Shown: positions 1-33,126 of the stretch, piece by piece
Numbering within the stretch: the first letter of the stretch is position 1
Layout of the letters: each line of letters begins with the position of its first letter
IMG/VR virus record: IMGVR_UViG_3300025362_000004
Location: 1-64,000 of that record
Source of the DNA: a virus
Length of the DNA: 64,000 bases
Reading direction: 5' to 3' (one strand)
The notes under the pieces: model-generated
Database searches by the model: none
What the model was told of the DNA's origin: nothing
Seen by the model: the letters and a program-made list of their open reading frames with translations, nothing else
Translations under genes and position numbers: made by a program

Positions 1-2120
1 ATACTAGCTGTACGAGTAGCTAATCCTATTCCCATTGTACTCCAACCAACCCTATATGCAAAATAAGAAGATGCGTTATTTGATGTTTGCCCCTTTATTT
101 TAAAAGTCATTACATAATCATGTTCAAGTATTAAAGCATAATCATCTAAATATAATCTCATTCCACCTCACATAGTCCTTCCTGCTGGTGTTGGATAAAT
201 AAGATTTGCTGGTCTATAAATTCTATAACCATCGGTAGTTAATGTGACTAAGCAATTTGATTGTGTGTAAGAAGATAATCCATCTTCAAAAACTTGATTA
301 TTTATTGCATCATCTAATAACTGAGCTTTATTTTCATACTCATAAATTTCATTTATAAAAAAATTCCCTTGATTATCTAAACTTGCTTTACTTTTATATA
401 AATTTGATATATCAGTCGAAGATAATGCTGTAGAATATATCCTTACGTCATCTAAATCTGCATCTATTCCTCAAGTAGTATTAGCGTAAGCGCCAATACC
501 TAAATCTTCAGTATATCCACTTGGAGTACCACTATAAGAAAAGTTTAATTTTAAAATATTATCTATATATAATTTAGCTGATGATATCCCATCATGAGTA
601 GCAACTACATGATTTCATACACCTATTGTAAGACCTGATGTAGATGATTGAGATTGAGTTGGATTCCATAACCTATAATAAATTGAAGTACCATTAGTAT
701 AAAGTTCTATTTGACCACCTTTTCTAAAAATGGCGCCAGTTGCTGCAGAATTTGTTCTAATCCAAAAAGATATTGTAAAAGGTAAATTAACTCCTATTCT
801 TGGTAATACAGAAGCTCCAAGTGAAATAACTTTACTGCCTGATGAACTTCCTCCGATACCATTAAAATACAAAGTATTACTTCCTGTTTTTGAATCTGAT
901 ATTGTCACAGGGCTTGTACTTACTGCAACTGTTCCATTATTTCCATAAGGACTGATATCTTGTATTCCTATATTTCTAGTTGTTTCTGTATAAGAAGAAG
1001 CATATTCTCCTATTTCTCATTGTGCTCCTGCTCAAACAAAATACCCAGCAAAACTACCATCAATTACTCCATTTTTATAAGGATAAAAATATCCAGTCAT
1101 ATTACCATCAGATATAGCCTTTCTAGAAACTTTTTGTCAAGTTCCTTTTTTAGTCATATCATATAAATAGGTAAAATTAGCATCAGCCTCACTTCCTGTT
1201 TCTCCTTCTATTGTTACTCTAGAAGCATCTATATCACAATCTTCTGAAACTAATAACCATGCAGAGTAAGTTCCGTACTCTCCAGAAGCTGCTCCAGTAA
1301 AAGACATTCCCATGTACCCATAAGAATTACCACTTCAAGTAGAACTTAAAGCACCAGTTGTAAATTTATATGCTCTGGTATCTTTACCTATTAATTCATA
1401 TGGTAAAAAACCCGTCCAATCTTCTCTCGGTGTTCTAAGATTAGAAGCGCTAGCCATATCTCCATAATAATTTGTTGTAGCTTGTTCTTCAGGATTATTA
1501 AAATTATAATGTAAAACTTTTGCTTGCGCAATCAAATATATCTGTTTATCTGAAAGAACTTCATCATAAACTCTCACATCATTTAATTTTCCCTGATAGT
1601 TTCATTCAGGTGCAGATGAATCATCTGTACCTATATTCAATCCTCCAGTCCCGCCTGTTTTATCTCAAATGGTGCTGGTTTTAAATATTCCATTTACATA
1701 AATTTTTACGAATCCATTTATTCTATCAAAAACTCCAGTTATATGATTCCACTGATTCACTAACCCTGTTGATTGAGCTGAAACAGTAGGGTTATTATTT
1801 ACTGAAGCTATTGCAGTAGTACCGTTTATATATATACTTATACCAGTATAAACGGGAGGATTGAGACCTATAATCTGACCACTTGTTGCTTGTGATGCTC
1901 AACCCATAAGGGTGTAGGATTTATCCACTGTCGTAGTAATTGGTGTGCTTATATATAAAGCCGCGTTACTATGCACATAACTATATAAATTATTTATTAA
2001 ATAAGATGTACCTATTTTTCCAGTTTCACCTGAAGTACAACTATGATTTGTTGCATGGTTATTATTGCCACTTATATCGTTTGTATTTCCATCTAATGGC
2101 CAATGTGCTATTAAACTCAT
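1..2120 (-). CDS. LamG/concanavalin-like repeat virion protein (receptor-binding/fibre-associated), runs off the left edge; TGA=Trp
   Basis: ORF pieces 1899-2120, 1335-1577 and 615-908 share one frame and each ends at TGA. Motifs HWPLDGN, *NHVVATHDG, LNDVRVYD and LDDVRIYSTALS are typical LamG repeats. Confidence 0.8.
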
Positions 2121-2255
2121 TTTTTCACCTTCCTTCAGAAGTAAAGAAAATACTTCTATTTTTTTCTTCTGCCTTTCATTAACGAAGGCGGCGATACGAT
2201 AAATATTATGCGCATCGCCGCTTTAGTTAATGGGGGAGTTAGATTCCCACCATTT

Positions 2256-2657
2256 TTAACTAAATATAAAATCTAAACTTAATGTTGTTGTATTATATTT
2301 CATTTGTACTGCGCCTGTTATAAACCCATTCACTCCAGCTGTTATTCCACCACTTGCATCTCTATAGGGTATAGTACTTGCAGTACCAGCTACAACCGCA
2401 TTAGATGTAACCGTGAATGTTGTTGCACTACTTTGATTTGCTGTAAATGTGTCTGAACCAGAAAGTCCCAACCCCGATACATTCATAGTTAAAGTAGCAT
2501 TATTAACAATTGGTAATTCAGTATACTTTGCTACTCGAACGGCCGCATTATTATCATCACCGTATCATAGTAAATCTTGAGTAACTCCAAGCTCACCATG
2601 TAATAGTGAGCCTGCTGTATTACTATCTGTTTTTCTTTGTATTTTTATTGTTGCCAT
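2256..2657 (-). CDS. small tail fibre-associated protein (TGA=Trp)
   Basis: ATG at 2657 (MATIKIQRKT) is in frame with ORF 2256-2486 through internal TGAs. The N-terminus resembles that of the adjacent fibre gene. Confidence 0.65.
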
Positions 2658-2669
2658 ATTATTTCCCCC

Positions 2670-4709
2670 TTATGACCAAGTTCCGCCATCAATAGTTCCT
2701 TCTATAATGTTTGCTGTGAATGAACCTGACCATGTTAATTGACTCGTTCCTGCAGCTGGTGTAGCATCTGAGCTTAAATTGCCAGAAACTGCTGCTACGA
2801 ATCTTTTATATGAACCAGCAGTTATTGAACCATCTAAGATATCATTTCCTAATGTGAATACTGTTGGTATTGTTGGGAATGTTGTCCATACTGGCTCTGC
2901 AATGAGTCCAGCTCCTGCTAAATATTTACCACTTGTTCCTCCTATGCCTGGTGCATAGAATGTTGGTGATGCATTAAGGATATTATTCATTGTTATAGCG
3001 TTTGCTGTATACCCACTTGGGTTAGTTGCATTATATGGTGTGAAACCTAACGCACCAGTAATATCAGCGCTTGCCAATGTTAATGCATGGCTGTGCGTTC
3101 CTGTAGCAACTGCATTTGTTGTAGAACCTGTTACCGTGCTTGGTGTACCCATAGTAATTGTTCCACTAGTTGTGAATGTAGTGAAGTCCATACCATCTCC
3201 GAATGCTACTTGAGTTACTGTACCTGTTGTTGAACTAGTTCCTGCTCCGATTGCTGCTCTAAACAATGCTTTTGTATATGTTGTTATAGTATTGTTATCA
3301 TTAATACCAATGAAACTTTCCACAGAAACATTAGTTAATTTAAGTAAATTATAACCTACTGTAGTCGCACCATGGACTGCTGTAGTTGTATTTTGTGAAT
3401 GTGTATATGCTGTATCTCATTCTGTTTGTGTTACTGCTGCTGCTGAGATTAAACCACTTAATTTTGTTGCATCTAATGTTGAAGCTGCAGTTAAGTAGGT
3501 TTGTAAATCTGAAATATCGTCTTCTGTTATTGCTCTAAAATCTGGTATACTTGCGGATGTTCCTGCCATAAGTGCGTGTCTTGCTGTTTTAGCCGCATAA
3601 GGATTCTTTGTATCTCCGTAACTATCTGATAAACTAATAACTGGTGCTGTAGTCCCACTTGACACGACTGGACTTGTTGCAGTTACTCCGGTTACTGTAC
3701 CTTGGGGTATATCCGGAAATGTTGTTCATACAGGCGCTGTAGTAGTTCCTGCAGAAGCTAAATAACTTCCTGACGCCACTGCTGTACGTCTGGATAAAGT
3801 AGTTGCTGTACTTGCGTATAACAAGTCACCAACAACATAAGAACCTTGTCCTGTACCACCATAACCTGCTGCTATTGTACTTGCAGTTCAAGTACCGGCT
3901 GTAAGTGTTCCAACACTTACTATAGACGTATTACCAGCTCAAGTAGTTGATGATTCGTCGGCCATCGTTCCTAAACCTAAATCTATTTTTACATTCGCAT
4001 AGGTTCTATGTGTAACGCTGTTATCAACATTTGTTCTAAGATAACCAAGAGCACTTGGATTGGTTAAAGTTGCGAGGCTACTACCAATTGTAGTGAACTC
4101 AGTGTTAGTTTGGAATGTTTCAAAATCTGCGATATTAAAAGCGCTATTGTAATCAACCATTGCCATTACTAAGTCTCCGACTTGTAATACACCTAATCCC
4201 GTATTAGTACCTGCTGAACTTACTTTAAAAGCTCAACCTGCTGAATACCCTGTAAGGTCACCGCTATTTGATATAATTTTCCCATCTAAAGTAGGGTCTA
4301 CAAGTGAAGTAATAACTCCTGTGAAAGTCATTGAACCTTTTAATACTACAGCATCTGTTGCTGCAGCTACGCTATCTACGTAAGCTTTATTTGTTAAATC
4401 ATAATCTGTTGATGGTGTTAAAGCAGTTCTTAAATAGCCACCCATTGCATAATATTTTGTAGTACCAGCCGCATTAGCAAAAATAACACTCTGAGTTATA
4501 TCATTTGTTAAATATTGAAATGTATTAGCTTGACTAAAATTATTTATATCATTTTGTGCTGCAGCGAATTTAGCAACTACCGAAGCTACTCCGCCAGAGT
4601 TTGGTCCTCATCCTAAAAAAGAACCAGATATCCCAAGTTCTCCTTCGTATAATACATCTGTTCCTATGGTAGGATTTCCAGTTTTTCTTTTTACTTTTAT
4701 ACTTGCCAT
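2670..4709 (-). CDS. tail fibre protein, about 679 aa, Gly/Thr/Ser-rich (TGA=Trp)
   Basis: ATG at 4709 (MASIKVKRKTG) has a GAGGTG RBS. ORF pieces 4233-4445, 3939-4166, 3417-3665 and 2670-3323 share a frame and are split at TGA. Fibre-like motifs include NKAYVD, GTVTGV and ALGFTPYNATNPSGY. Confidence 0.75.
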
Positions 4710-5501: not shown

Positions 5502-8174
5502 TTAAACAATGCCGATAAGTAATTTCTCTAACATTGCTATTGTATTTTTAATTCTATCTACTGTGAGAGATATATTTGAACTATCTCGCAAGCTTCTAGA
5601 AATTGCTGTTACTTTTAATTCATTTAGAAAAGCGGGGATTAAATCTAATTCATAATCTTTAACTGAAATAAAATCTCCAACTTCTATTTTATCAATTTCA
5701 ACCCCGATAATATCACTAATATCTAAATAAGTTATACTATATGTATCTTGAGGATTAATATATTTTGCATGGTATAAAATTGCTTGATTATATAAACTTG
5801 CTTGGTCTACTTCAATATCATTTTTATAATAACCCTCAAGTAAGAATTGTCCATAGTCTCTCTTAATTTGATACCATAATAGATTTTTTTCTGCTTTTAT
5901 AGTTGCGTATTGAGTTATTAAAGGAATGCCACCAGATGGCGTAGGGTCAACATATCCATCTTCATATTCGCTAAACAATAACCATAATCAATTATAAATT
6001 CCCATTTTTGATGTTTCATCTGTATTATGTATAAAGGGGTCAAGGTCTGTAGACTCATCATGAGTCCATGTTCCACATTGTAATGTTTTATCATCATAAT
6101 CTGTTTTTTTATTCGTATATTCCGCATCTAACAAAATATATAATTCAGTAGTGACACCATGAGCGGCTTCTTCTGTATCTCTTTCCGCTAGAGCGCTATT
6201 TCGTGCTTCTTCTATTATGTCTCTTTCATCTATTAATTCTACTAAATAATCTCTGTGTACTGCTAATTTCGCAGCTACTTCAGTGAATCCATTATAACTA
6301 GTCACTAAATCAAAATAATCATAGTAATCTTGGTCAGCAGTAGTATAATTAATAGAAAGTTTAGTCCAAGCTGCGGCTATAGTAGTACCAATAGTTAATT
6401 CACTACCAGAGCTCGTATAAGGGCCTCAAACTATTTGATAAACATAATATCTACCTTGGTCAACCATATAAATACCGTCTCCAACAGTATAACTACCAAA
6501 ACTCGGAAGTGTTGAACCAAGAATTTGTACGGCAGTCTCTATTCATGGTATTCGAACTCAAGCATCTATATTTTTTAAAGATTTATTTTGTGATGTTATA
6601 CCACTATTAGTAATTATAGCATCAGGAGTCACAGGGCTAGTCGCAATCCCCAATTGTATTGTAAATTGGTATCTAGTATCTGGAGTGCCTGATATTTCTA
6701 TTGTTTTTGATATAAGACCGCTTGAACTAGTTATACTTGTGTATCTATCATGTTTTGTTAAATTAATATCTAAATCAAAACTATATTCAGTTGGGAAATA
6801 AAAATTGTTAATATCAAATGTATCGGGCGTAATTGTATATACCCATTTAGTAGTGTATGAAATATCAGCTCTTAATCCATATGCATCAGTAAAATCTACT
6901 TCAACGCCTATCATAAACAAATCATCTATTTTTTGTTTTGAATTTATTATTTCTTCTCCTGTTTTAGCTTTCACCAAAATTTGACATTCAGTTAAAATCT
7001 GAGACTCAATATTATAAATATCTGACGACATGGTATATTTTTTTCTAATTACATCTTGATATCTGATATTAATTTTTCTTAACTCATTAAAAATTTTATC
7101 AAACAAATCATTGTTATCAGCCTCTGTTATTAAACTATTTTCTAAAAAATAATCTAAATTTATAATAAAATTATCTAAATAGGGAATCCTATCAATAATA
7201 GCGATTAAATCAGTATAGTCACCTTCTATACCTAGGTCGTCTCATACACTTGAATAATACCCTTCATTTGGTGTGTCTTTATTCGCTCAGTCAGCATAAG
7301 TTACATCGCGAATTCCGGTAGGTGGAGCTGATTCTCAGTCTATATTAAGAAATTCTTGTGGTAAAGTCGGGGTCAAACCAACATTCAATCCATAGTCATC
7401 TTCGCCTCCAGTCACAAATAATAATGAATATAATTGTTCTCCATTGTAATCTAATGAAAGGTCTTGTATATTTATATTCGGTGATAATTGATAATTTTTA
7501 TAAAAGCTATCATCATCCCTAGGATAATAAGTTACTGATAAAGTAGTTGAATAATAATTTATTTTCATTTGAGTATCTGTTAAATTTGCTAATTCAATTA
7601 ACGCATTATATGTATTTGAATCAGACAAACTAATATTAAATAAATCGGTATAAGTAGAAAATACTTCTCAACCATTAGTACTATTTCTTAATCCTCCTCT
7701 TTCTAATAAAAAATTACCTAAATCAACTATATTATTTGTTACAGTTTCCGCATCGAGTAAATCATTCCACTCTTCGTTCTCAATACTATCGAAAGTTAAA
7801 CCAATATTATTTCTTGTAAGAATATAACTAAAATAATCTATTGATGTTATATTATAAATTATATTTGAATTAGACTCTTGAGGAGTAATTGATTGTATAA
7901 TAAAATCTATATAATTATCTCCTTCATGATTCTCGCATTCAAGTCTTAACTTTCTACCAATTCTAAGGTAATCACTTATCTTAAATGTTGAGGAAAATCT
8001 GCTTGAGGAAGCTATATCAGAAGTAAAAGAAAATGTTAAATTGAATTGGTCATTTTCATTTTCTTCTAAATTTTCATTAAAAGTTATATTTGTATTAATA
8101 CTATCGGGCTCATATTGAGAAAATAGTATTGCATTGTTGCTATTGTCGTAAAGATAAAGTTTAAATCCTTTCAT
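5502..8174 (-). CDS. tail hub/Tal-like minor tail protein, about 890 aa (TGA=Trp)
   Basis: Five in-frame ORF pieces (7668-8174, 7335-7628, 6558-7106, 5988-6305, 5502-5978) are joined at TGAs. Follows the distal tail gene; C-terminal IEVGDFISVKD is typical of tail hub proteins. Confidence 0.7.
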
Positions 8175-8269: not shown

Positions 8270-9475
8270 TTAAATTATTTCTCTTGAAATTGGAGTTACA
8301 GTAACATAATCTCCATTCATAATATCATAATTAGTATAGACTGCCTTTATATATATATTTTCTGAGTACTCGATCCCTTTTAATCAAACACTACTTACTT
8401 CAATAAATTCATTATTTTCGTCTAAACCTATACCATACTCTGTATAAATTGTTGCATTAAGTATCTGTGTAGTATAGACATCATAGCTACCCGATGCCCA
8501 AAAAATTCTAAAATCTGTAATAGTATAGTTGGCTCAAACTGCAGATGTTATAGGGTCCGTATCAATAATACCAGTGGAACCTATACTAAATCTATAATAA
8601 GTTCCACCGTATGTAGTCCCGTTACTAATATATACTCCTAATTGATATAAATCAGCTCAATCATCATAAGTACTTGTTCTTACAAGCCCGGGACCCTGTC
8701 CAAGAAAATATAATCCGTTTTCGTAAGCAGTCGTTTGTCCAGTTAATAAAATTAAATCACCTTCTTGGAGTTCGTAGCCATCATATACATCAAGTTCTGC
8801 AACCGTAGCTAATACAATGTTACTGTCTATTAAGACTTCAGCAGTATCATAATTATTTAAACTTCATGACACTTTGAAATAATTTGTTGTATTATTATAG
8901 TTATAAACATAAAAATATGTATCAATTGGGACTATAAAATTATTACCTTCTGAATTATTAATGTAGTCACCAGTAGCATCTCAATGTAATATATCGGGAG
9001 TATCTAAAGTCCCAATTCATCTAGCTGCTCAGTCATTCTTAGTAATAAAATTAACCGTCATGTCAACATTATATAACGGACTACCGCCATTTCAGTTTAC
9101 TACATATTTTGCTTCCGTAATAGAATTAACTTTTACATCATACCCATAATTAGCATTGTAATCGAAAGATAATACTCCTTCACCATTCCCATCTAACCAT
9201 CTTAATACATCTCTATATTCAGTTAAGGTTATGTCTTCGAAAGCAATTGGAAAACTAAACTCTCTAGCTTCTCTTGTCGTTCCTATAAAATAACTTTGAT
9301 TACCAAACTGGGGCGTTGTAAAATCGTGTGAGAAAGAAGGATTGAAAAATGTTAAATCAAGTCCCTCATTCACTACGAAACCTCCGAAATCGGCATTTAA
9401 TCTATAGCCGTCAAAAGGTGATGTTCCCGTATAGTCACTTTTCTTATAATTAAAACTTAAATAATTGTCTGCCAT
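8270..9475 (-). CDS. distal tail (Dit-like) protein, about 401 aa (TGA=Trp)
   Basis: ORF 9092-9475 continues through several TGAs to TAA at 8270. Directly follows the tape measure gene; contains REFSFPIAF and WLDG..GVLSFD. Confidence 0.7.
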
Positions 9476-9486: not shown

Positions 9487-12400
9487 CTATCGTTTAGTAT
9501 TCATATTTAACCCACGACGTGATATCGCTGTGTTAAATGCTTCTGCAAGAGTAACTCCTGCTGTTTTGAAATCTTGATTATTGTTTAATTTATTTGTTTG
9601 AATAGTTATATTTTCTACTACCACTGATGAACCACCTTTTCCGTCTATTGCAACTTTTGAAAGTATATCTCGTAAGTTTGCAAATAACTCAGTTTGACCT
9701 GCACTAAGAAAAGCTTCAGGATTTGAAGAAGTTCCGTGGACCATTGCCGGTCCAGTGTAATCAACTAATCCACCTTTTTTGTAAAGTTTTTTTCCATTTT
9801 GATATCTACCAACGCCATTCCAAAGAGCACTCGCTGTATCTTCAGCACTAACACTTGGGTCAAAATTGTTATTATTTCTAATCCAGTCTTTACCATCACT
9901 AGTTAATTCATTATAAGAGCTATATTGTTTTAATGCTTGTGTAATATTATTGAAATATTCTTCTCATTGACTCTCTTTAAATGCAATTGTAGCATTTTCT
10001 AAAACTGTATTTCCAAGAGTATCAAGATAATCCTCTACGCTCAAACCACTACTAGTAAAATCACTATAGGTCCCTCCCATTTCAGTTATTAAAGGTTCGA
10101 TATCTACTCTGTTTGGGTTATCTACGTTAGGTAGAGTTTGAGTAGTTGTAATCGGAGTTGTAGGATTATATACTTCTGGCAAGATACCAAATGAATCGTA
10201 ATTAGTTTGTTCAGTAAATGCAGTTCCTGCTCCGGGGTCTCTATTAACCCGTCCACCTTCCATTAACGGATTGACTGCTATTATAGGCTCAATTATATCC
10301 TCTCCAAGTGCAGTTAAACCAGCGTTGTACTCGTCTAATGTTATTCCTCCAGCTGCATATAGGCTATCTAAATAAGCTTTAGCTGCTGATACCCCTCCAT
10401 CTTCCATAGCTGTTACCATCGTAGTCGCTATGTTTTCTCAAATTGCTTCATACTCTGTTTTTTCAAACTCAAGTCTATCAAGTAAATCATCTCTAGATTG
10501 TTCTCTTAGAGTGTCTGCAGCATCTTCATCAAGATTAATTAAGTCTTTTCTTAAATCTTTTGCTTTTTGACGAGAGGCTTCATCAGTAGCTCCTTCAAGT
10601 CTTTGAAGTTGTTTAACTATATCTTCTCTTGTTTGTTCTGTATCTCTTTTTTCTTCTAGTCTGTCAAGAGCATCAAAGTAATCTTCATAAGTTTTAATTT
10701 TTTCATCTAGCATTTCTTCATTATTTTCTACTGCAGCATCTTTAACTGTAATGAAACCATCTATTATGGTATCTACATACTCTTGACTCTTAGTTTGATA
10801 CTTGTCTAAGTAATCTTCGTAATTACCCATAAGTGTTTGATAAAGGTCAATATTTTTAATAGTTACTACTCCATTTATTATTTCAAATATATCAGACATT
10901 TTATATCCACTATCTTCTATTGCCTTATTATATTCTGTCTTTAAATCGTTAAGATTTTCTTCAGTTTGTTTTATAGTTTGTCCTGTTGTAATAATTAATA
11001 AATTCATCTGTTTTTTAGAGATTTCACTATTTTCTATACCCATATCTTGTAACTTAGTATATTGTTTATATATTTCGTTATATTTAACTTGAGTTTTTGT
11101 TAACCCTTTTAAAGAACCATTATATGCTAAAAGCATTTCCAATCTTGTTATTTCTAATTGAATCCCAGCTTTTTCCTCTTCATTGACAACAGCTAAACTA
11201 GCTCTTAATACTAATAAATCAGATTCATATTGTTTTTTAATTTCTTGTAAATTTTCCACAAGATACAAACCTAAATCAGTTCCCTCTTTAAAGGCTTCAA
11301 CAAAATCTTCATTTTTGAATAAATCTGGATGGTCGTCTACGAAATCATAGAAATCTTCGTTAGACATTTCGCCATTTCTATACTTTTCTTGTGCTTCTGC
11401 GATGGCTGTAATTGAATTTTCAATCTTATCTAAAGATTGAGCTGTAGTTTTTGTACTTTCTCCCATAGCCATATTAAATAATTTCGCTCTTAAAACTTCA
11501 TCATCTGTTGCTAGTCCCAATTCTACTAAAGCTTGAGTATAAGCCATCGTAGGCCCAACCCCATCATCCATTATTTCAGAAGTTCTCTTGACTAAACCTT
11601 TAAAAACAGTAGTTGCATCAAGTTCATACTCACTTAATAATGTTTCAAATGCATCAAAAGTTTCAACGCTAAATCCAAACTCATTCAAGAAATCTCAAAA
11701 ATTATCATCTTTAGTTTTTGTTTTAAAGTTCTCATAAATATATTCTAAGTCTTTAAATTGTGTAATTAAAGCGTTAAAAGCTGCAGAGTCCAATTGTAAA
11801 TTTTCTTTTAAATTAGAAAAGATTTTATATTTATCAGACAATGATTCCGCTTCAGCCATTTTGTCTTCTAAATCATCGAAGTTCCCTATAAATTTACTTA
11901 TAACCGCCTCTATATTAGAATCAGTATATCATGCCTCTAAATCACTTTTAGTCATCCTACTATCTGTATCTAATAGTCCAGAACTTTCTATATATTTAGT
12001 TAATGCATTTTTTTGGTCTGTAGACATATCTTCGCCAGTATCCCATTCATATTGTAATGAAATATATGATGTAGCAGCCTTAGCAAATTCTTCTTGACTT
12101 AATTTTTCTTTCATTGCTTTATTTCATGCTCTTCTAAAAACTTCTGCCATATTCTCAATCATTTCTTGTTGATTGTCCCTCATAGCTTTGTTCAAAGCTT
12201 TCATTGTTGCATCCCAATCAACTTCGCCGTTTAGAGTAATAAAATATTTTCCATTTTCTAGGGTTTCTATTTCATCTCTTAATACTTCAAGAGCCTCTAA
12301 ATCTTCATCTGTTTTTATTGATTTCGAACTCAATTCATCATATTTATCAATTAGTTTTTGTAATGATTTATTTGTTTTGTTTAATTCATAGTTCGCTGCA

Positions 12401-20901: not shown

Positions 20902-21382
20902 TAATATCTCCTCATTTAGATGTCCCATCTGCATTTACTCTGTAATAATCATACTCTGTATCCTTCGCTTCTTTTTTAAATGTTTTATACATTTTATCTA
21001 GCTTATCTAGGGTATTCCCAGGCGAGTGCATTCTAATTTCTTTATCATAATATGCATTCGTAAAATTTCTTTCTGCTGATATTTGAAATTCAATTCAAAG
21101 TTGTTTCATGCGAGAGACAATTACATTGTATTCTCTTTGAGTAATAGGATAAGTTGTTTCATCAAAATAATAACCTTTTGCTATATCTGTGATATCAGTA
21201 TTAACAGTATCATCCCACGAATAACTTAATGAAATCTGTGGAAACTTGAACTTTGCAATTGCTCTAATAGCCAATTTGTCTAGTTCTCCTTGTATATCGT
21301 AATCGGTATATTCTGATATAGTACAACTATCTATTGATTGCAGGAACTGAGGAAATAGGGTATCTTCCCAGTAACTAGCCAT
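20894..21382 (-). CDS. head-tail adaptor protein (TGA=Trp)
   Basis: ORF 21095-21382 reads through TGA (MKQL*IE...HSPGNTLDKL) to TAG at 20894. Confidence 0.6.
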
Positions 21383-21911
21383 CTAAGTCGACATCGTCTA
21401 AGATTGCGCTATAAGTTTCTTTGATATAGTTTATAGTTCCGTAATTTAATTTTTCACGGACAGCTCTAGCTGCACCAACAAAATCTCTAATTAGTTTACC
21501 ATTAGCATTGCCCATCAACGTTTTAATTACGCTAAGGTCGTTTTTAATTAATGCTTTTCTCATTTCTTTTATAGTAATCTTAGGGTCTTTAATAGAGTCA
21601 GGTACATATAGTCCTTCACTCTCAGCCAATTCAATTAACAAATCTAAATCTTTAAAAGCAATATATCCTTTATCTAATTGATTAAGCGCTCCATCTGTTG
21701 TGAATACTCCTAATGCTCATTTAGTAGGCACTACTTGGAATTCTTTATCATATCTCATGCTAATAGTTCTTCCAGGTGCTGATAAATCAAATGGTTCTAG
21801 AAAGACTGAAATACCGCCTCTATAGTTTTTTACCATCGTGAAGTTTTGTGGATATACTTTTGTTGCTTCTCCATCTTTTAGTGTTTGTTCTTTTCTTATA
21901 AATTGTGTCAT
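21375..21911 (-). CDS. hypothetical head-associated protein (TGA=Trp)
   Basis: ORFs 21717-21911 and 21375-21641 are in frame across one TGA. Confidence 0.6.
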
Positions 21912-23011: not shown

Positions 23012-23548
23012 TTACGCGTGAGCTGCATATAACAATGAGTTATATAGTCCCAAGTAAGTTAATCTAACTGCTGCATCGCCAGTAGGTAGAGTTGATGCTT
23101 CAGAAGCAAAGATTGTATCTTTATCTGCTGATGTTTGTAAAGTTATTTTTCCAGATACTGCTTTCGCAAAAGCTTGTGTTGCTGGTGTTCCTGTAAATCT
23201 GTCTGTAGTAAATGTATCTCCTACATATAATCCGATTAGACGAGGATAAATTTCGTCGTCTGCGTCTTCTTCTACTGCGAAGTATTTTAATGCATCCATA
23301 TATGTATTAAGTTCTTCTGTGTAGTGTAGGAAAGGTTGTGTATGTGTTCCAATCGCAAAGTCTGCTATTTCTAAGTCGCTACCTAAACCTAAAATTGCAC
23401 CATTTTCTAAAAAGTCATTAGTGTAAGTTTCGTTTAAAGTAACACCAGAGCCAGCTAAGTATTGCGCTAGAACGTGTCCCATTCTTAATCCAGCTAGTGA
23501 GTTAACCTCTACTACTGGAAAAGTTGGTAAGTTGTCTAAAAATGCCAT
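23012..23548 (-). CDS. capsid decoration/minor head protein
   Basis: 178 aa beta-rich ORF (LENGAILG...LYVGDTFTT) between scaffold and capsid. Confidence 0.6.
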   Translation of the reverse strand: MAFLDNLPTFPVVEVNSLAGLRMGHVLAQYLAGSGVTLNETYTNDFLENGAILGLGSDLEIADFAIGTHTQPFLHYTEELNTYMDALKYFAVEEDADDEIYPRLIGLYVGDTFTTDRFTGTPATQAFAKAVSGKITLQTSADKDTIFASEASTLPTGDAAVRLTYLGLYNSLLYAAHA

Positions 23549-23561: not shown

Positions 23562-25067
23562 TTATTTGTATTGCTCGACTAAAGCTTTTATAGCAGATTC
23601 TCTGCTACTTTTCATCTTTGTCGCGTTTATTAGTAATGGGTTCATTACTGTTTTGTTTTTTTCGAACTCTCTCTCTTCTTTTTTTATTCGAGTGAATTCT
23701 TTTGATAGTGTAGTTTCTAATTCATCATAAGAAAAATTATCCACCATATTAACAACTTCTTTAATAAAGTCGCTTGATAAGTCCTCTCTGAAAGATTCAA
23801 CTAACGTTAATTTTCTTTCTTTTCTAAGGGCTTCAAGTTCTGCTCTTTCACCACTATCAAGTGTGGTTGAGCTAAACTCTTGTTCTTCTTGTTCTTCTTC
23901 ATCGTCTTGTCCTTCTTCGAACTCGTCTTTTTCTTCAAGTTCTTGTTCATCTGTTCCACCTTCTTGTTGGTCTTCTACAGATGTTTCATTTTCAAACTCG
24001 CCTTCTGATTCCTCTTCATCATTTTCTTCTTCATGATTTTCTTCTTCAAATTCTTCTTTTTCTTCTTCGTTTTCTTCTTCTTCAAAATCATTTTCTTCTT
24101 CGTTAGCGCCCAGGTCAGAAGATTCGTCTTCAAAGTCATCATCATGTTGTTCATAATCGTTCATAGTTTTTTCCCATTGAGAAATTTCTTCTGCTGTTAA
24201 GTATCTTGGATAAACTTGAATTTTATCACCAAATACTGTATTATCTTCTTCAGAAGTAAAAGAAATTCTAAAAGTATTAGCTTCATATGTTTCTTCATCA
24301 AATATAGTAACTATTACATAGTTCTCGAATAAATCGTTAATGTAGAAATAGTTATATTGAGTCGATAAACTTTTAGCCATGTCTTTCATTTTTTCAGTAT
24401 AGGTTTTTTCTATGAAGATGTTTGTTGCTTTGAATAAATCAAATTCCATTTCTTCATTACCTCTTTTTGTGCTCTCGTCGTATTTTTCTCATTCCGTATT
24501 AAATCCTTTAATAATATCTGTAAGGTCTTTTTGTAGCTTAAAGAATTCAGAGCCAGTAAATGCTGGTTGTTGGTCGTCTCCTAAGACGCTAAGTCCTAAT
24601 AGAGAACCAGTTTTAAATTCAATTGCTTCAACTTTCCCTTCTGCGTTCTTATGTACTTCATAAGTAACATCATCTGGATTTAATTCTAAAGAGTGAGGTT
24701 GTCCTACAATTTTTTGAGCGATTTCTCCCGTTTCGTCTTTTCTACCAGTATATAAGATTACATCGCATATTGCAAATTCTTTGCCATCTTCTTTTTCATA
24801 ATCTACTTGTGTGCTTTCTGGAACAACACCATAAATATACTGATTACTGTGATGTCCTTTAAAATCTTCTTTTTCTTTATCATAGAATCCTACCACGGGC
24901 ACGTAAGGTAGTGTCTTTAATAAATTGTCTGAAAACTCTTTTGTAAATAATCTCTTATCTGGAGTCATTCCAACATAAAAAATTTTCAATTTAGCAATAG
25001 AGTATAAAGGATTTTCACTTTCTTTGTAGTCGAAGACAGTAACAGGAATACTTAAATTAATATCCAT
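23562..25067 (-). CDS. prohead protease-scaffold protein, fused through TGA at 24489, with internal start at 24449
   Basis: The protease-like N-domain (LPYVPVVG, HSLEL, GLSVLG...PAF) is in frame with the acidic scaffold ORF; the linker has no TAA/TAG. Confidence 0.75.
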
Positions 25068-25082: not shown

Positions 25083-26624
25083 TTACTTAGCTTTGTCATT
25101 CACTGCTGGCGTTTTTGTTTCTTCCTTTGGCTTGTCTGCTGTAGGTTCTGTTGTTCCCGGTGCTGAATCGGTTGATGTATCTTTGCCAGATTGTGTATGC
25201 GAGCTTTGTAATGGTTGTAATATTTCTTCTAGTTTCAAATAAGTTTCAAGTTCTGCTTTTGGAGTAATATGTTTTTGCTTCGTTCCAGACGCAACAATAA
25301 ACTCCAATATGCCAACACCGTATTCGGCATTACTTCTATAAAGTTCCAACGATTCAGCTTTGTTATAGTGTGTAATTGGTAGCATAGTAAGCTCCACTTG
25401 ATAACCTTTGAAATTATATAAATTGTTCAGCGTTAAGTTGTAAAAACTTACTAACTGTTCAATAAATTTTCATGTAGTCGCGGCATCTTTTGCTAAAGAC
25501 ATAGCTAGTGATTTATCACTATCGCCATTAAATATGTTTGTATTTAATCCGCCTGCGCTATATATAGCATTATGTGCTTTTTCTAAAATCTCGTTTTGAA
25601 TCTTATCATTCTCACCTAAATGATGAACTTCTAAATCTCCAAAAGTTGTAAGCAAACGAGTTCTACTGTTAGAAGCAAGTTGTGCTTTCATTGAAGTATG
25701 TAAATCATGAACTTCCTCAACCTCGAATAATAATTGGTCCTCATAAGACGGTATCTTATGACTTATAATTTTATCTAGTTGAGCGCTATTTCTTTCTACT
25801 TCATTTGCTCGGTATGTGTCATAATCAAAAATACTTTTGATTACTGATAATTTTGTTGGGAAATTCAAATCGTTTAATCTAAGAAACGTTCCGTATCTTC
25901 CGTCAATTATATGATATCTTTGATTTCTATCTGTTTGATAATCTGAATATGCTTGAGTTAATTCCTTAGGATAAAGTTTTAAAACTTCATCTCTAGTATC
26001 AACATTAAGCCCTAAGTTATCAAAATAAGTTGCATCGAACTGATAAATACCTGTTCCGTATTGACTCATCATAATTGGTTGGCAATATGCTGGGTCTAAT
26101 AAGAAAGTAATAACAGTTTGAGAAGATGTATCTTTAGATGTATAAAGATAAACTATTCCATCTTTGTATAAATTTGTTAGAATTATTGGAAAAATGACTT
26201 CTATGTTTAATCCATCGACAACGCTAGTCATCAAATCATAAATTTCGGTATAGTCAGCACTAACCTCTTTTTTCGCTTTTACTGGCATATAGAAATATCT
26301 TCATAAATACATATTAGATAAGAAATCAACTATTGTAGCATAATTGCTATTTGTTCCATAGGCATAATCTGTTAATTGTTTTGCTCTGTCCCAGTTAAAA
26401 CTACTAGAACCTGCACTATTTAATATAGTTGTTAAGTTCGAACTTGTAAAAATACTAGCTGCGGAACTTGTTGATTTTCTAACGAATGTTCTAACCCCAG
26501 TAGTATCGCTATACATTTGTTTAATAGCTTTTCTACGGATAGACATTTTAGAATTTCTTTCTGTTTCTTCTAATTTTAGTTTTTCTTCTAATTCTGACGT
26601 TAATGTTTTATTTATTTCATCCAT
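25083..26624 (-). CDS. portal protein, about 513 aa (TGA=Trp)
   Basis: Three in-frame pieces joined at TGAs; lies between terminase and protease. Confidence 0.75.
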
Positions 26625-26636: not shown

Positions 26637-28436
26637 TTAATCTACAAAAACTCATGACTTAGCATTTTTTCCTCTACGTCTACGTTTTTTATAGTATTCT
26701 AACTCTATGTATTGGTTCACGCCATAGATAGCGTATTCAGCTGCGGAGAAAAAGTCCTTTTGGATATTTGAATCTCTGCGCTTAATTTTCATTGTTTTGT
26801 TAATATTATCTTGAATATCAGCAATTTCTATATTACGAAGTTCTAATTCCATTTCATCCATAAATCTATATGGTCTTAATTTTCTTTCTCTTGTTGGATT
26901 GCTTGCTCTTTTAAATCCTTCAAGTCCAGCAAATTTAGCAATCGCTTCTTGACTTTTTATAAGAAATCTAATAGAACCATTACTTATTCTTGAAAAGAAT
27001 AAATTATGTATTTGTTCAGCTTTCTGTCCAGTCGCTTTTATTTCATAACATATTGTTTTATCTTTTGGGTATTTGATTACATCTTTTTCTGCATTAGTAG
27101 GCGGGTTAATAATTCCTAATCCGTCTAATGGGATGCCATCATGAGTAATACTTCTTTTGTTTAATCAGTCGCGGATAGCCGCACCGATACCATTAGCATC
27201 ATAGATTAATAGTCGTGCTTCATATACTAGAACTGTTCGTTTTAATATATTCGATATAACTTCATAATCTGTGCTATCGATTCTAAATAAATTAACTAAT
27301 TTATAATTAAACATATATTCTTTTGGGGTAACTTTGAATATTTCAACTACAGTAGCTGCAGTCCCATCTTTCGCCATATCGGCTGATACAGCATAAAATG
27401 ATTCATTGTCATCTTCTCTTGCTTTATATTCTGCTCTAACTATCTTGCGTAATGCTGTAATAGTTGCTGCAGAGAATGCTGCTCCTTTAGTAGCCCCACT
27501 CCATATGCTCATATACTCTCTTTCAAATGACTCTCTTGTAAAACTTGGTGCTGATATTATTTCTTGAATAGTTTTTTCTTCTAATAAACCATGCATTACT
27601 GGTATTTGATAACTACCGCCCATAAAACCATAATTGTCTGGGTCGATAACTGTATAACAAAGTGTTTCAATTAATTTGTCATAAGCATAAGTTCCTTGAT
27701 AACCAGCTGTTGTAACGAAAATCTTACTACTATTCGGTTCTTTAAGATTTACATTGCCTCTAATATCTTCTCTAGGTTTATTAAGTAGTGGAATAACTTG
27801 CTCATTAATATAAGTAGCATCCAACTGAATAACTTCCTCAAAAATACCTGAGTTACGTCTGAATCCACGAATTGTTCCACCAACAACATCAAATATTCCG
27901 CCGTGTGTGAATCTAAATTCTGCGTATCCATTACCTTGAACGAAAGCGGCTTTTCATTGTCCTGCTTTCTTTACTTTTTGCATTTCATTCATTAATAGCG
28001 GGAATCTTACTCATAAGTCCCCTTCAATTTTTTCTTTCGCGATTTGCGCAGCTTGTTCTTTTGTTCCTGCTGTAACAAACGCTTTATGTCTAGGAACTAA
28101 CATAGTCGTTACATATCTACTATAGAAAGCCAAAAATGATTTTGAAAATCCACGAGTAAATGTAAAAAAGCTTTGTCTAGTTCTTGCCATTTCTCTTAAT
28201 ACCATTCTTTGCATAAAGAACATTGAAAAACTTGAATCTTCAGGTGTCATTATATCTGCTAGAATATCTGGATAAGTAAGAAAAGTATTAATTGCATTAC
28301 CAATTTTATCTAAATTCTTATCAATTCTAGACTTAGGCACGATGTTTGGAGAACTTTGAGTATTCTTATTAAGAAAATCAAAATATTCCTTAATCTCAGG
28401 CTCTATACTACTCGTCATCAAAGTACGCATAATCAT
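26637..28436 (-). CDS. terL: terminase large subunit, about 599 aa (TGA=Trp)
   Basis: Walker A-like TRGFSKSF, Walker B RGFRRNSGIFEEV, coupling motif VTTAG, nuclease SADMAK / YDANGIG / KDFFSA. Pieces are in frame across TGAs. Confidence 0.88.
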
Positions 28437-29415
28437 CTTCCTGTATATAATCTTCTATACTATCGTTCTCTAATTCTTCATCAAACTCTTGATTGTGCTT
28501 ATCTTTAGCGGCATCATATAGATTTTCTAAAGATACTTTCTTATAGCTCTCTGATTGTGCTTGAAGTTCTTTTTCGTGCTTTAGAGACTCATTAATTCCT
28601 TCAAAAACTATTTCTAATCCAGTTGCGTCTAAAACAACTCGTTTGATATAATCTTTAATATCTTTCATTGATTTATCAACAACGTCTCTTTCAACGCCAT
28701 CATAATAATTAAATTCAAAATTTTTCTCTTCAAGATAGGCAACTAAATCAGCGACTGTTGCAATAACTTCGCTGCTGGATTGTGTGATAATTTTATCAAT
28801 TTGAGCAGTACTTATAAAGTTTTTATAAGCCTTACTTAAATCATTTATTTGTTTTGTATCTCCGCCCATTATAGCTCTATCGAGTTGAATACTCATTTTA
28901 CAAGCCTTTTTAATAGCATCAATTTGCATTGGGTTACTAATGCTGTTGGCTGCTAGTGTACTAACAAACAAATTCTCTAAATTAACTAATTCTTCAAATG
29001 TATAGTTTGTTGCTCATTTAATCCTATTCCTTAATAGATAAGCTTCCTTAATCGGAGCGATTCTTTCAATTATTTCTTCATGTGTTCTAGCTAAAGCTCA
29101 TTCTTTATCAGCTTCTTTTCAAATGTCCTTAGCCGCAGATTCATATTGTATATTTTCTTCTTCTACAACTCAAGAAATATATTCTTGAAAAGTTTCTTTT
29201 TTATACATTTTAGAAAGCAATATTCATTTTTCTGGGTCAAACGGATAGTTATAAGTTCGACAGAAAAAATCCGCGTCTTCTATATTATTATAATCTAAAT
29301 TAGTAGTAATACAATGTTGACAGACGGACTGCGCTATTGGGTTATTTGAAGGCAAAATGATATTATAATTGCCACATTTTGGACATTTATCTTTTTTAAA
29401 TACCATATTTTTCAC
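28408..29415 (-). CDS. putative terminase small subunit with N-terminal Zn finger (TGA=Trp)
   Basis: ORFs 29224-29415 (CPKC..CQHC) and 28408-28971 are in frame across TGAs; overlaps the terL start. Confidence 0.55.
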
Positions 29416-30068: not shown

Positions 30069-30096
30069 GCTTTAATTAAAGCCAAGGAGCCGCAAG

Positions 30097-31068
30097 ATGA
30101 CCTGAATATACTGAGTAATAATGATTATACAATTCATTATTATTATTTCGTTGGCTACCAAAGAACCGCAAGTTATTGAAAAAATTAAAGACGTTTCTGA
30201 AGAGGAACGTCTAAAATTAGAACATGAGAAAACTAAACGATTAGCAGATTTAGAAAAAGAACTTTCAGAGAGACGTCTATCTTTCCAAAAAGAAATATCT
30301 GATAAGCGTGCGGAAGAATTAGAAGAAATTAATAAACTTAAAGAACGGAAGTATAATGAATTAGAATTAACAATAACTACTTGAGAGGAATCTCAAAAAT
30401 TAAGACAAAAAGAATTTTTAAATAAACAAGAAGAATTAAAATCTATGTATGCTGAGGAACTACAATCATCATTACAAGAACAAAAGGAAGAATTTGACGA
30501 TAAAGCCGCACAGGCTAAAGAAGAAACTAAATTAATCGAACAGGGGTTACTTGAATGAAAAACTAAGTATGACTCAGCAGTCGAAGTCTATAAAAAATTA
30601 GAAGAACTAAAGAATGCTGACTCACATTATAGAATTTCTTTTTCTCCTGATGAGAACGAAGAACTCGATGAATTAAATAGAGTTGTTCGTAAATTGAAGA
30701 ACCCGACACCATTTTACAAAGCTATATATGAAATATATTATAAAAATAAAGTTAAACAATTAACTTTAAGAGTTGTAGGCGTAGATAAAATCGCAGGCAT
30801 TTATAAAATTACTCATACAGAAAGCGGTAAATGCTATGTAGGGCAAAGTGTAGATATAGCAAATAGATGAAAACAACATATAAAAAGAGCTGTTGGAGCA
30901 GATACTCGAACAACTAATATGTTATATCCCGCAATGGCAGAATTAGGTATAGGAAGTTTCAATTTTGAAATAGTTGAAGTAGTAAATGACATAAATAAGT
31001 TAAACGAATTAGAAAAATATTGGCAAGAATTTTTAAAAGCAAAAGAATTTGGATTTAGTGTAAGATAA
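30097..31068 (+). CDS. membrane-anchored coiled-coil protein with C-terminal GIY-YIG nuclease domain (TGA=Trp)
   Basis: AAGGAG RBS; N-terminal TM segment MT*IY*VIMIIQFIIIISLA; coiled coil; GIYKITHTESGKCYVGQSVDIANR*KQH; stop TAA at 31066. Confidence 0.75.
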
Positions 31069-31079
31069 GGAGAAATAAA

Positions 31080-31945: not shown

Positions 31946-32665
31946 ATGGATAAAAACAAACAATTAGAAGACTGCCTTGAAGAAGGGATGTGCGCATGAA
32001 TAATGTCGCATACAGATGAACCAGTAAGAACAATTTTTACTGCTATAAGAACTTGTTATAGTGAACATGACCAAGAATATTTAGCTTATGAGGAATGGTT
32101 TAAATACTTATGGAAAGTCGCAGAAGGTTATCCAAATGATGCGGTTAGGTTATTATGTAAGGTAGCCGCTATGAAGCACTTAAGCGTTCTTGAACATGTA
32201 TCTTTTACTTTTGGAATAAGAGGGGTATCACGTTCTTTATTGGCGCAATTAACTCGCCATAGAATAGGTTGAAGTTATAGTGTCCAAAGTCAAAGATATG
32301 TAGATTTAGGAAGTGAATCAAAATCAAAAGGATTCAAATATTTTACTCCTGAGGCTATAAAAAATGATAAACCAGCAAATGGCATATTTAAACAAGCTAT
32401 GCGCGATTTACAACGTTCATATGATATACTTAGAATGAATGGTATTAAACCTGAAGATGCGAGATATCTATTACCAAATGCAACAGAAACTAATTTAACG
32501 GTAACTTGTAATTTCCGTGCATTTTTAGACTTCTACTCAAAACGAAGCACTAAAGCCGCACAATGAGAAATCAGAGAACTTGCTGAGGTCATGAAATCTC
32601 GAATTATCGAAATCGAACCAGATTTAGAATTTGTAATTAATGAATATATAAATCAAGGAGAGTAG
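31946..32665 (+). CDS. thyX: FAD-dependent thymidylate synthase (TGA=Trp)
   Basis: HLSVLEH, RHRIG*SYSVQSQRY, EDARYLLP, NFRAFLDF..KR and AQ*EIR motifs; GGAGGA RBS. Confidence 0.92.
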
Positions 32666-32669
32666 CCGC

Positions 32670-32864
32670 ATGGAGACCATTGAAAAATATGTAATAATCG
32701 AACAAACTTTTCATGGGATGCGGATAGTTTCTGAATCATATGATTCTGAAGAAATTATATTTGTTTTAACAACGTTTAAGCATAAAAATAAAAATGTTTA
32801 TTACTTTCTATGAAAAGTTATAGAGTTACAAATTGAAGATGAAATTTGAACTAGAATGGAATAA
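32670..32864 (+). CDS. small hypothetical protein (TGA=Trp)
   Basis: AGGAG RBS; open frame with two TGAs to TAA; terminator at about 32950-32975. Confidence 0.4.
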
Positions 32865-33126
32865 GAATTTTGAACCGATATTAATTAAACTTATATTGTA
32901 TTAGTATTAGTTTTGGTTAGTCTTTTCAGAAGAAATAAAAATAGTATTTTGAGAGCCGTTGAGGCTCTTTTTTATTTGGAGCGGCTTCATGGCTTTCGTT
33001 GGGGTGTTGTAAAAAAATTGCACAAATTCCTACTATACCCCTACATGCAGTCTGCCCTATTTCTGGCGGTTTTTTGGGATTGACCACCCCCCCCATATAG
33101 ATATTTAATTATTTATGCTATATCCC

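Follow-up and report, generated by a model that had tools for sequence, protein, structure and literature searches.

Gene-class distribution of TGA codons and a UCA tRNA in a phage from salt lake runs

Reading frames in the left part of this viral DNA are interrupted again and again by TGA, and the locus thus raises the question of which phage genes read TGA as a sense codon, as which residue, and by what means. The window analyzed here is a stretch of 64,000 nucleotides (IMG/VR record IMGVR_UViG_3300025362_000004, positions 1 to 64,000) and makes up the opening half of a phage genome that is complete at ~123.4 kb, with a GC content of 0.32, found in public runs labelled salt lake metagenome, none of which is listed as an RNA run. 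Coordinates refer to the window unless marked as genome positions. Our preferred explanation, to which we assign a probability of about 0.8, is that the host uses the standard code, that TGA is read as Trp in 25 genes through a UCA tRNA encoded by the phage, and that the early genes, which contain TGG only, are readable by the host. The phage is probably a tailed phage, presumed virulent, of a low-GC Bacillota-like host with the standard genetic code. Its closest cultured terminases all belong to Bacillota phages, the best terminase match in the GenBank phage collection is Geobacillus virus E3 (36%), and the ThyX homologs bearing names are from Bacillales.

TGA and TGG across gene classes

Coding density was measured in 4-kb bins as coverage by ORFs of at least 60 aa. 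Across 1–32 kb, coverage rises from 0.55–0.93 under code 11 to 0.69–1.00 under code 4; reading TAG as sense in the same bins served as a control and gave 0.61–0.95, without the gain seen under code 4. Coverage is flat in the bins of 36–44 kb (0.77 to 0.78 and 0.81 to 0.81) and likewise at 100–120 kb. The check thus bears out an earlier note, made from the window's letters alone, that TGA interrupts frames left of ~33 kb.

TGA and TGG were then counted in ORFs of at least 100 aa on the dominant strand, a TGA being accepted only where 40 codons or more lay on either side. The late virion module, which extends from 120.4 kb past the genome end as far as 29.4 kb, has 58 TGA and 46 TGG in 25 ORFs, versus 5 TGA, none credible, and 125 TGG in the 53 ORFs of 33.2–88.8 kb (Fisher p = 3.5e-20). 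These five TGA are confined to two ORFs that we rejected as genes. One (34000–34449, 9 TGA under code 4) is a false ORF produced by a perfect tandem repeat of 24 bp in 5.7 copies (34212–34348); the other (44052–44615) has its TGA inside a promoter (44164–44192), upstream of a code-11 start. That Trp right of 33 kb is written TGG, as had been claimed, agrees with the 96 TGG in 71 code-11 ORFs of at least 50 aa at 33.2–63.3 kb and with the WSWWWV motif at 56169, which is all TGG.

Most of the recoded genes in the window lie on the minus strand and encode virion parts. A tail-fibre-like ORF with two Laminin_G_3 repeats (genome 123386..2120, window 1–2120; 720 codons) contains 10 TGA and 7 TGG. 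It is followed by two virion ORFs whose family was not recognised (2256–2657, 1 TGA; 2670–4709, 6 TGA and 3 TGG), two tail or virion ORFs with 8 TGA each (5502–8174, 890 aa, with a weak Prophage_tail match; 8270–9475, with a PHROG annotation of head decoration or virion structural protein), and the tape measure protein (9487–14895; 1802 aa, 8 sense TGA, 5 TGG). Within the virion core, TGA occurs in 15277–16671 (4), 19598–20092 (2), 20894–21382 (2), and 21375–21911 (1). The ORFs at 14908–15276, 16674–17396, 17553–18365, 18379–18891, 18904–19608, 20092–20934, 21992–23008 (phrog_4088, capsid-like), and 23012–23548 are TGA-free. The head and packaging genes comprise an ORF at 23562–25067 (1 TGA), the portal (25083–26624, 2 TGA), the large terminase subunit (26637–28436, 4 TGA), and an ORF at 28408–29415 (5 TGA, 0 TGG). 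On the plus strand, a GIY-YIG domain protein (30097–31068) has 5 sense TGA and a NR-TGA-KQH motif from 30862. ThyX (31946–32665; Thy1, E 6.8e-55), with sense TGA at codons 18, 109, and 207, is the final well-supported recoded gene before the 33-kb boundary.

At this boundary stands the first (33127–33155) of a series of 20 near-consensus sigma-70 promoters on the plus strand of an early block at 33127–44965, which consists of small ORFs with no credible in-frame TGA. The promoters are of the TTGAC(A/T)-17-TATAAT type, mostly with TG before the −10 element. Genome-wide there are 42 such promoters, versus 11.5 ± 2.7 in shuffled sequences, and the late module is free of them on its coding strand. 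Replication genes follow the same pattern. The DNA polymerase has 0 TGA and 14 TGG; those of four recoded relatives have 0 TGA versus 23–26 TGG; and the polymerase, both topoisomerase-like ORFs, DnaB, and primase are TGA-free in the phage and all four relatives. Early genes thus lack TGA as a Trp codon, as proposed before, in both the promoter-rich block and the replication genes.

As a stop codon, TGA is best represented by an NT5C-like 5′-nucleotidase gene (36734–37225, plus strand), the best candidate for such use, whose end forms an ATGA overlap at 37222 with the start of a 52-codon ORF (37222–37380, plus strand). The NT5C profile ends near residue 162/163 of the product, a mild hint that this stop is real; relatives' alignments end before the C-terminus and give no comparison at the stop. 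A GIY-YIG homing-endonuclease-like gene (49261–50148, minus strand, 295 aa) has no internal TGA and also ends in TGA. The overlap is present as described in the earlier note, and the ordinary TGA stops that it envisaged right of 33 kb amount to four early ORFs only.

Beyond the window, 9 internal TGA were counted in five further ORFs of at least 100 aa at 88.8–120.4 kb, and sense TGA also occurs in genes for a class II ribonucleotide reductase (RNR), thioredoxin, a dUTPase-like protein, a RuvC-like resolvase, and two membrane proteins. Region-restricted recoding, the central claim of the earlier note, therefore describes the window and fails for the genome, where TGA follows gene class; in total, 25 genes read TGA as sense, with 89 TGA and 49 TGG. 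The base after the 89 sense TGA is G in 45, A in 31, T in 11, and C in 2, somewhat unlike that after the 49 TGG (A 20, G 14, T 11, C 4). The RNR gene is split by an insert of ~318 bp that has no Rfam match.

Were the host itself a code-4 organism, the phage would simply follow its host's code and there would be no switch. The AT-rich genome resembles code-4 lineages in this respect, and a contig from one relative was binned into a MAG that bears the label uncultured Mollicutes; this MAG, however, carries two PCRF-domain genes. More broadly, relatives' contigs are binned in six MAGs, and all five that were checked have at least two PCRF-domain genes, a result that concerns the relatives and not the phage, and placement in a bin is a weak guide to the host. 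The phage genome gave no match at E ≤ 1 to release-factor or TrpRS profiles (PF00472, PF03462, PF00579), so the search for release-factor homologs suggested by the earlier note found none, as would suit a code-4 host. A host of this kind with an AT-rich phage would nonetheless lead one to expect TGA everywhere, against its absence from credible ORFs at 33.2–88.8 kb and from the replisome in five genomes. A relative with 60% terminase identity keeps the standard code throughout, and the phage brings its own UCA tRNA, although none was detected in one recoded relative. We consider a code-4 host improbable and infer that the host uses code 11.

The residue read at TGA

Relatives were gathered through an alignment of terminase homologs, which yielded 80 loci, and 47 IMG/VR relatives were read at the DNA level; a search of viral_contigs with the portal protein alone found no relative. 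Three terminase columns are Trp in 118–119 of 119 database homologs. One of them is TGG in the phage, and two are TGA, namely columns 142 (Trp in 118/119) and 424 (119/119). The codon in the relatives' DNA is mainly TGG or TGA at all three columns, with TGG/TGA counts of 30/17, 32/8, and 31/7. Of 119 ThyX homologs, 65 have Trp opposite the TGA of codon 207; opposite that of codon 109, 95 have Phe and 18 have Trp. Across 1001 aligned cells of relatives opposite a sense TGA, TGG (405) and TGA (148) precede Tyr (106), Phe (68), and Leu (60), and the 12 commonest residues do not include Gly. Where at least five relatives align, 7 of 21 TGA sites are at least 80% TGG or TGA, the others lying in variable columns. 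The same substitution is visible within one protein, where paralogous LamG repeats write the same Trp once as TGG (WNHI, 1751) and once as TGA (TGA-NHV, from 617 on the minus strand; PF13385, E 3.7e-31). The earlier observation of TGA on conserved Trp positions holds in that all three cited motifs are in the sequence, including AQ-TGA-EIR of ThyX (TGA at 32564–32566). At the DNA level, these comparisons support the reading of TGA as Trp.

If TGA stood for Cys, Sec, or, as in code 25, Gly, or if the frames were pseudogenes or assembly errors, the interchange of TGA and TGG at invariant Trp columns would have to be accommodated. ARAGORN labels the UCA tRNAs "SeC", and one RNR TGA stands opposite Gly in a Thermotoga structure. 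It does so in a variable stretch of the alignment, and the RNR sites were dropped as evidence on the residue for this reason. Bacterial tRNA-Gly has U73 as a rule. The three tRNA-Gly genes of the phage have T or A at this position, versus G73 in the UCA tRNA, which argues against Gly, as do the aligned cells. Decay or misassembly would further have to explain 89 in-frame TGA with no comparable TAG signal and identical sequence in other runs. We give this group of explanations almost no weight.

A UCA tRNA as the likely decoder

The earlier note had correctly reported that the window holds no tRNA-Trp(TCA) and had predicted a UGA suppressor supplied by the phage; the genome-wide check located a tRNA with anticodon UCA at genome 88868–88945 (L002:4868-4945), outside both the window and the phage tRNA array. 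This array begins in the window at 63316–63966 (plus strand), with 40 tRNAs called by ARAGORN between 46266 and 79614, and includes a tRNA-Trp(CCA) (genome 68738–68812). The UCA tRNA has an Rfam match of 43.5 bits and the anticodon loop CUUCAAA. ARAGORN missed it by default and called it tRNA(tca) at -ps95. A "tRNA-Pyl(cta)" called at this setting (genome 67751–67830) was rejected; it has a poor acceptor stem, no Rfam match, and no TAG read-through signal. The acceptor end of the UCA tRNA (GGGAGUA plus G73) is almost the same as the one in the phage tRNA-Trp(CCA) (GCGAGUA plus G73), so the host TrpRS should charge it, presumably with Trp.

Contigs of four other runs cover the UCA tRNA with zero differing letters. 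An exact 40-nt stretch of it had no match in viral_contigs, and BLAST against the records of five relatives returned a single 18-nt match. A tRNA(tca) with a regular anticodon stem occurs in two code-4 relatives, and the standard-code relative has none. The phage tRNA has two non-standard pairs in this stem (NC marks in cmscan) and scores below the ARAGORN default, which makes its efficiency uncertain. Its sigma-70 promoter is of the early-gene type and matches at 12 of 12 positions, with no Rfam match in the 160-nt leader between the two. Since it shares an early-type promoter, the tRNA may be made from the start of infection, which weakens the notion of a sharp switch.

Single ORFs with 8–10 TGA need near-complete suppression. 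If the UCA tRNA were decaying or inefficient, a tRNA-Trp(CCA) of phage or host could read TGA near-cognately once a phage factor had disabled RF2, whose removal such ORFs would require. The irregular stem and low score suit this idea, as does recoded relative G001, in which a UCA tRNA is not detectable and tRNA-Trp(CCA) is present. In the published survey, as far as its text was available, no more than 35% of the genomes of code-4 phages were reported to have suppressor tRNAs (bioRxiv 10.1101/2021.08.26.457843). Decay is hard to reconcile with a sequence identical across four runs, a perfect promoter, a Trp-like acceptor end, and the regular stems of the two relatives' UCA tRNAs, and no candidate RF2 antagonist was found, nor anything else that bears on the RF2 inhibition considered in the earlier note. 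Near-cognate decoding therefore appears quite unlikely to us.

The phage's own UCA tRNA is most likely the decoder, acting on 25 genes that comprise most of the virion module, the plus-strand block at 30.1–32.7 kb, and genes dispersed beyond the window. Under this proposal, the first-acting genes, those of the early block from 33.1 kb and those of the replisome, would be readable by a naive host, and full-length products of the TGA-bearing genes would appear only after the suppressor had accumulated.

Significance and comparison with known systems

A further possibility, for which we see roughly one chance in a handful, is that suppression stays incomplete and that the number of TGA per gene acts as a translational attenuator that sets virion stoichiometry, besides timing. 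The capsid-like protein, its neighbour at 23012–23548, and two paralogous virion proteins are TGA-free, and homologs of the four are TGA-free wherever found in the four recoded relatives (three for 23012–23548). Likely low-copy parts are rich in TGA: the tail fibre (10), the tape measure and 890-aa tail proteins (8 each), and the terminase (4). The UCA tRNA, with its conserved but weakened anticodon stem, heads an operon, directly upstream of two heavily recoded membrane-protein genes. Codon 4 of the first is a TGA; the second, over 144 codons, contains 5. Neither protein matched a family, and no match was obtained for the endolysin families PF01520, PF01510, and PF01183, so a lysis cassette was not located. 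Under the attenuator reading, these putative lysis-type membrane proteins could be the products most dependent on the suppressor. In many bacteria, the RF2 gene requires a frameshift at an in-frame UGA; as a conjectural corollary, less host RF2 would be made in the presence of a strong UGA suppressor, which would thereby reinforce itself.

For annotation, the practical consequence is that code-11 gene callers fragment about 25 genes of this phage. The decoder tRNA was missed by a default scan, which fits the suspicion, voiced in the available text of the survey, that suppressor tRNAs are under-detected (bioRxiv 10.1101/2021.08.26.457843). Three independent marks coincide here, namely promoters of the host type, the functions of the genes, and the use of TGA, which makes the phage a clean case of the code-switch model, and it raises no new question on code switching.

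The same survey describes phages that infect standard-code hosts yet recode TGA (code 4), with a bias toward late genes, including the virulent Agate lineage of ~127 kb, and the pattern seen here matches that account, as the earlier note had anticipated in citing late-gene recoding as known. Compared through the published description, the phage resembles Agate in size (123.4 versus ~127 kb), in TGA read as Trp, in recoded structural genes next to standard-code replication machinery, in a TGA suppressor tRNA, in the rarity of TGA as a stop, in a recoded GIY-YIG endonuclease-type gene, and in a terminase clade that unites standard-code and recoded genomes. It differs in its source, salt lake runs rather than gut, in also recoding nucleotide-metabolism genes, and in that its lysis enzyme was not located. 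[quoted passage not shown] Phages of code-25 Absconditabacteria and Gracilibacteria and of code-4 Mollicutes, as described there, use their host's code, with TGA across gene classes. They share with our phage the reading of in-frame TGA as sense; here, however, TGA is Trp rather than Gly and is absent from early and replication genes.

Block-wise dual coding was reported for crAss-like phages in the Mgcod preprint (10.1101/2022.06.29.495998), and TAG as Gln has metaproteomic proof in them (PMC9523058), in whose accessible text protein-level proof for TGA as Trp was not found. With these phages ours shares a single genome in standard-code and stop-reassigned blocks, the late genes lying in the reassigned block; as far as the sources describe them, they are of another lineage, with hosts in the phylum Bacteroidota and mostly TAG as Gln. 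The phage is thus an already described kind of code switching, in a new example from salt lake runs, outside the gut systems covered in the survey as available (bioRxiv 10.1101/2021.08.26.457843).

Reading of TGA in the late genes

The record is a single contig of 123,582 bases (the window being bases 1–64000) that is rated complete by CheckV in IMG/VR. About 153 terminal bases duplicate its start, leaving ~123.4 kb of unique sequence with a GC content of 0.32; GC skew and ORF direction turn near 29.5, 45.5, and 58 kb. Left of 29.4 kb, the standard code (code 11) breaks the minus-strand ORFs into pieces, and code 4, in which TGA is read as Trp, joins them into long ORFs (1802, 890, 679, 599, 513, 501, 464, and 401 aa). 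PHROGs and Pfam identify among them a tape measure, a portal, a terminase-like protein, virion structural proteins, and a protein with two Laminin_G_3 repeats; tblastn matches to annotated large terminases confirmed the terminase. In 4-kb bins over 1–32 kb, ORF coverage rose from 0.55–0.93 to 0.69–1.00 with code 4, while bins at 36–44 kb were unmoved and a TAG control gave no comparable gain. These densities agree with the earlier note, which had proposed TGA-to-Trp recoding left of about 33 kb and only TGG to the right, and every motif it quoted was found with the codon claimed.

TGA codons were counted in ORFs of at least 100 aa on the dominant strand, with at least 40 open-frame codons on both sides. 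The late module (minus-strand virion genes from 120.4 kb across the genome end to 29.4 kb) holds 58 TGA versus 46 TGG in 25 ORFs, 15 of them TGA-bearing, compared with 5 TGA versus 125 TGG in the 53 ORFs of 33.2–88.8 kb (Fisher p = 3.5e-20). All five of the latter lie in non-genes: four fall in a frame over a perfect 24-bp tandem repeat, and the fifth is within a promoter, 5′ of the ORF's code-11 start. Genome-wide, 25 recoded genes contain 89 TGA and 49 TGG. The tandem repeat (window 34212–34348, 5.7 copies) sits at the start of the early promoter block, and each unit includes a 16-bp palindrome.

Exactly three terminase columns have Trp in at least half of 119 database homologs; Trp occurs there in 118–119 of 119, and the phage has TGA at two of the three and TGG at the remaining one. 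Because database proteins could themselves be code-4 calls, we examined the DNA of 47 of 80 IMG/VR terminase loci (L004–L055 minus the split or partial L041, L043, and L046–L048), with frame problems in four adding noise. The first column reads TGG in 30 and TGA in 17; the second, TGG in 32, TGA in 8, and other codons in 7 (4 TAT); the third, TGG in 31, TGA in 7, and others in 9 (6 Tyr codons). In ThyX, codon 207 (TGA) aligns with Trp in 65 of 119 homologs, codon 109 (TGA) with Phe in 95 and Trp in 18 of 119, and codon 18 (TGA) with a variable column. Opposite sense TGA in the 25 recoded genes, 1001 aligned cells hold TGG (405) and TGA (148), followed by Tyr, Phe, Leu, Ile, and Met; the substitution profile is Trp-like and near that opposite the phage's own TGG. 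Two observations count against a Trp reading: of the 21 sites covered by five or more aligned relatives, just 7 are ≥80% TGG/TGA, and one TGA in the ribonucleotide reductase (RNR) aligns to Gly, in a variable stretch. The terminase columns, the relatives' TGG/TGA codons, and ThyX codon 207 nonetheless establish, at the DNA level, that TGA means Trp, as had been claimed.

Early promoters and genes beyond the window

Searching for TTGACA-16/18-TATAAT and allowing up to one mismatch returned 42 sites, against 11.5 ± 2.7 in 20 mononucleotide shuffles by 1-kb block. Of these sites, twenty are plus-strand ones at 33127–44965, usually with TG ahead of the −10 element and one per small ORF. The first (33127–33155) stands immediately past the last TGA-bearing frames, and the late module has none of the 42 on its coding strand. 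As a separate line of evidence, the promoters mark the TGA-free block as one that the main holoenzyme of the host RNA polymerase transcribes early. That TGA acts as a real stop, suggested previously at 37222, is plausible for four ORFs, best for the NT5C gene, which has an ATGA overlap at its TGA stop and a length agreeing with the Pfam profile.

Restriction of recoding to one region stands within the window but fails genome-wide. Recoded genes outside the window include a class II RNR in two parts (3 + 2 TGA), a thioredoxin (1 TGA), a dUTPase_2/MazG-like gene (3 TGA), a RuvC-like resolvase (1 TGA), and two membrane-protein genes, at genome 88979–89488 (TGA at codon 4) and 89448–89882 (5 TGA). 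Free of TGA are a UvrD-like helicase, the topoisomerase II large subunit, a 765-aa ORF, a Sak4-like protein, DnaB, primase, RecJ, a 1280-aa DNA polymerase (14 TGG), and a 387-aa ORF (11 TGG). In four recoded relatives, the polymerase has 0 TGA and 23–26 TGG, and both topoisomerase-like ORFs, DnaB, and primase likewise lack TGA, whereas UvrD and the 387-aa ORF are recoded; TGA avoidance therefore follows the core replisome, not map position. The RNR is split by a ~318-bp insert (L002:10877–11196, genome 94877–95196; L002 and L001 are stretches beyond the window) with NPCGE and CNLGS motifs on either side. The insert contains no ORF, has no Rfam match at E ≤ 1, and is possibly a small intron.

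A UCA tRNA and a proposed course of infection

The phage-supplied UGA suppressor predicted by the earlier note has a candidate beyond the window. At default settings ARAGORN called 40 tRNAs; Trp(CCA) was among them, and none had a UCA anticodon. The Rfam tRNA model found one further tRNA at genome 88868–88942 (43.5 bits, anticodon loop CUUCAAA), which ARAGORN at relaxed thresholds called tRNA(tca). Bacterial Trp identity consists of G73 and the anticodon. The acceptor stem is GGGAGUA with G73, beside GCGAGUA with G73 in tRNA-Trp(CCA). By itself this acceptor end is no proof of Trp identity, because G1-U72 together with G73 also occurs in three tRNA-Arg genes of the phage. The anticodon stem has two non-standard pairs, which are no assembly error, since the tRNA recurs letter for letter in contigs from four other runs. 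A 12-of-12 promoter lies 160 nt 5′, and a gene with TGA at codon 4 follows 33 nt 3′. The search for release-factor homologs that the note had suggested found none: RF-1, PCRF, and class Ib synthetase domains had no match genome-wide at E ≤ 1, while control genomes matched.

Directly 5′ of the tRNA's promoter lie four small genes that lack TGA, one of which encodes a CBM_5_12 domain; another promoter and then a c-di-GMP-I riboswitch (L002:3009–3083, 49.1 bits) precede them (whole stretch L002:2972–4643, genome 86972–88643). Elsewhere, an 82-nt sequence (window 46486–46567, plus strand) matches the tmRNA model at its two ends (65.1 bits), with a tRNA-like domain and ACCA and no tag-coding part; it adjoins tRNA-Glu in a GC-richer, ORF-poor stretch at 46–49 kb. 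A full-length tmRNA gene lies at L001:13588–13979 (genome 77588–77979; Rfam 94.2 bits and an ARAGORN call), as in the relative G001 (L091:17984–18368). A GOLLD RNA match at L001:18645–19156 (genome 82645–83156) scores 150.4 bits against a gathering score of 150; G001 instead has a ROOL RNA (L092:3878–4455, 215.5 bits). A CTA-anticodon tRNA-like sequence between two tRNAs (L001:3751–3830, genome 67751–67830), called by relaxed ARAGORN only, has a perfect T arm and a poor acceptor stem; no TAG read-through signal was found across the genome.

Most likely, host RNA polymerase would transcribe the tRNA array and the UCA tRNA along with the early cassettes. The TGA-free replisome and early proteins would be produced at once, and full-length products of TGA-bearing messages would have to await a build-up of charged tRNA(UCA). 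The tRNA gene and promoters are present; we infer Trp charging and the timing role. This course has two weak points: some single ORFs require 8–10 TGA read-throughs with RF2 as competitor, and the UCA tRNA combines an early-type promoter with a weak anticodon stem. TGA is absent from a capsid-like protein, its neighbour, and two paralogous virion proteins, as it is from every homolog of these located in the recoded relatives; the genes for tail fibre, tape measure, and terminase have 4–10 each. TGA load appears inverse to expected copy number, in small numbers grouped post hoc. That incomplete suppression tunes protein amounts besides timing is conceivable, if rather unlikely.

Relatives, host, and published recoded phages

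By ORF coverage, the relatives G001, G002, G003 (an incomplete genome), and G005 are TGA-recoded, and G004 uses the standard code (0.862 versus 0.866). G002 (L101:8929–9025) and G005 (L113:247–343, minus strand) encode 97-nt UCA tRNAs with G73 and regular anticodon stems; a near-identical insert makes a long variable arm in both, and their acceptor stems are unlike. No UCA tRNA was found in G001 by ARAGORN or Rfam, nor in G004.

Several indirect lines suggest that the host is Bacillota-like and, we infer, uses the standard code. The nearest cultured terminases are all from Bacillota phages (best, Geobacillus virus E3, 36%), named ThyX homologs are from Bacillales, and a 628-aa early protein (L002:1041–2927, genome 85041–86927; 0 TGA and 15 TGG) carries six Listeria-Bacteroides (Flg_new) repeats. 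The promoters have an extended −10 element, typical of Bacillota. MAGs with relatives' contigs are labelled Acutalibacteraceae, Clostridia, Ezakiella, Mollicutes, Bacilli, and one Gammaproteobacteria; all five checked, the last not among them, have at least two PCRF-domain genes. Six public runs from 2017–2018, all labelled salt lake metagenome, each contain 50% or more of the words sampled from L002:4600–12400 (7.8 kb), with no RNA run among those listed; this DNA may derive from one of the six.

A full-text literature search, a thin basis, found no paper on salt-lake phages of the TGA-recoded kind. One preprint (bioRxiv 10.1101/2021.08.26.457843) covers phages that infect standard-code hosts and read TGA as Trp or TAG as Gln, with structural and lysis genes recoded and replication genes not, suppressor tRNAs detected in 35% of code-4 genomes, recoded and standard-code genomes closely related, and TGA-recoded genomes of ~127 kb in the Agate lineage. 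The Mgcod preprint reports dual coding in blocks, and PMC9523058 reports proteomic proof of TAG=Gln. Given this match, the view of the phage as a further example of already described TGA-recoded phages is well supported.
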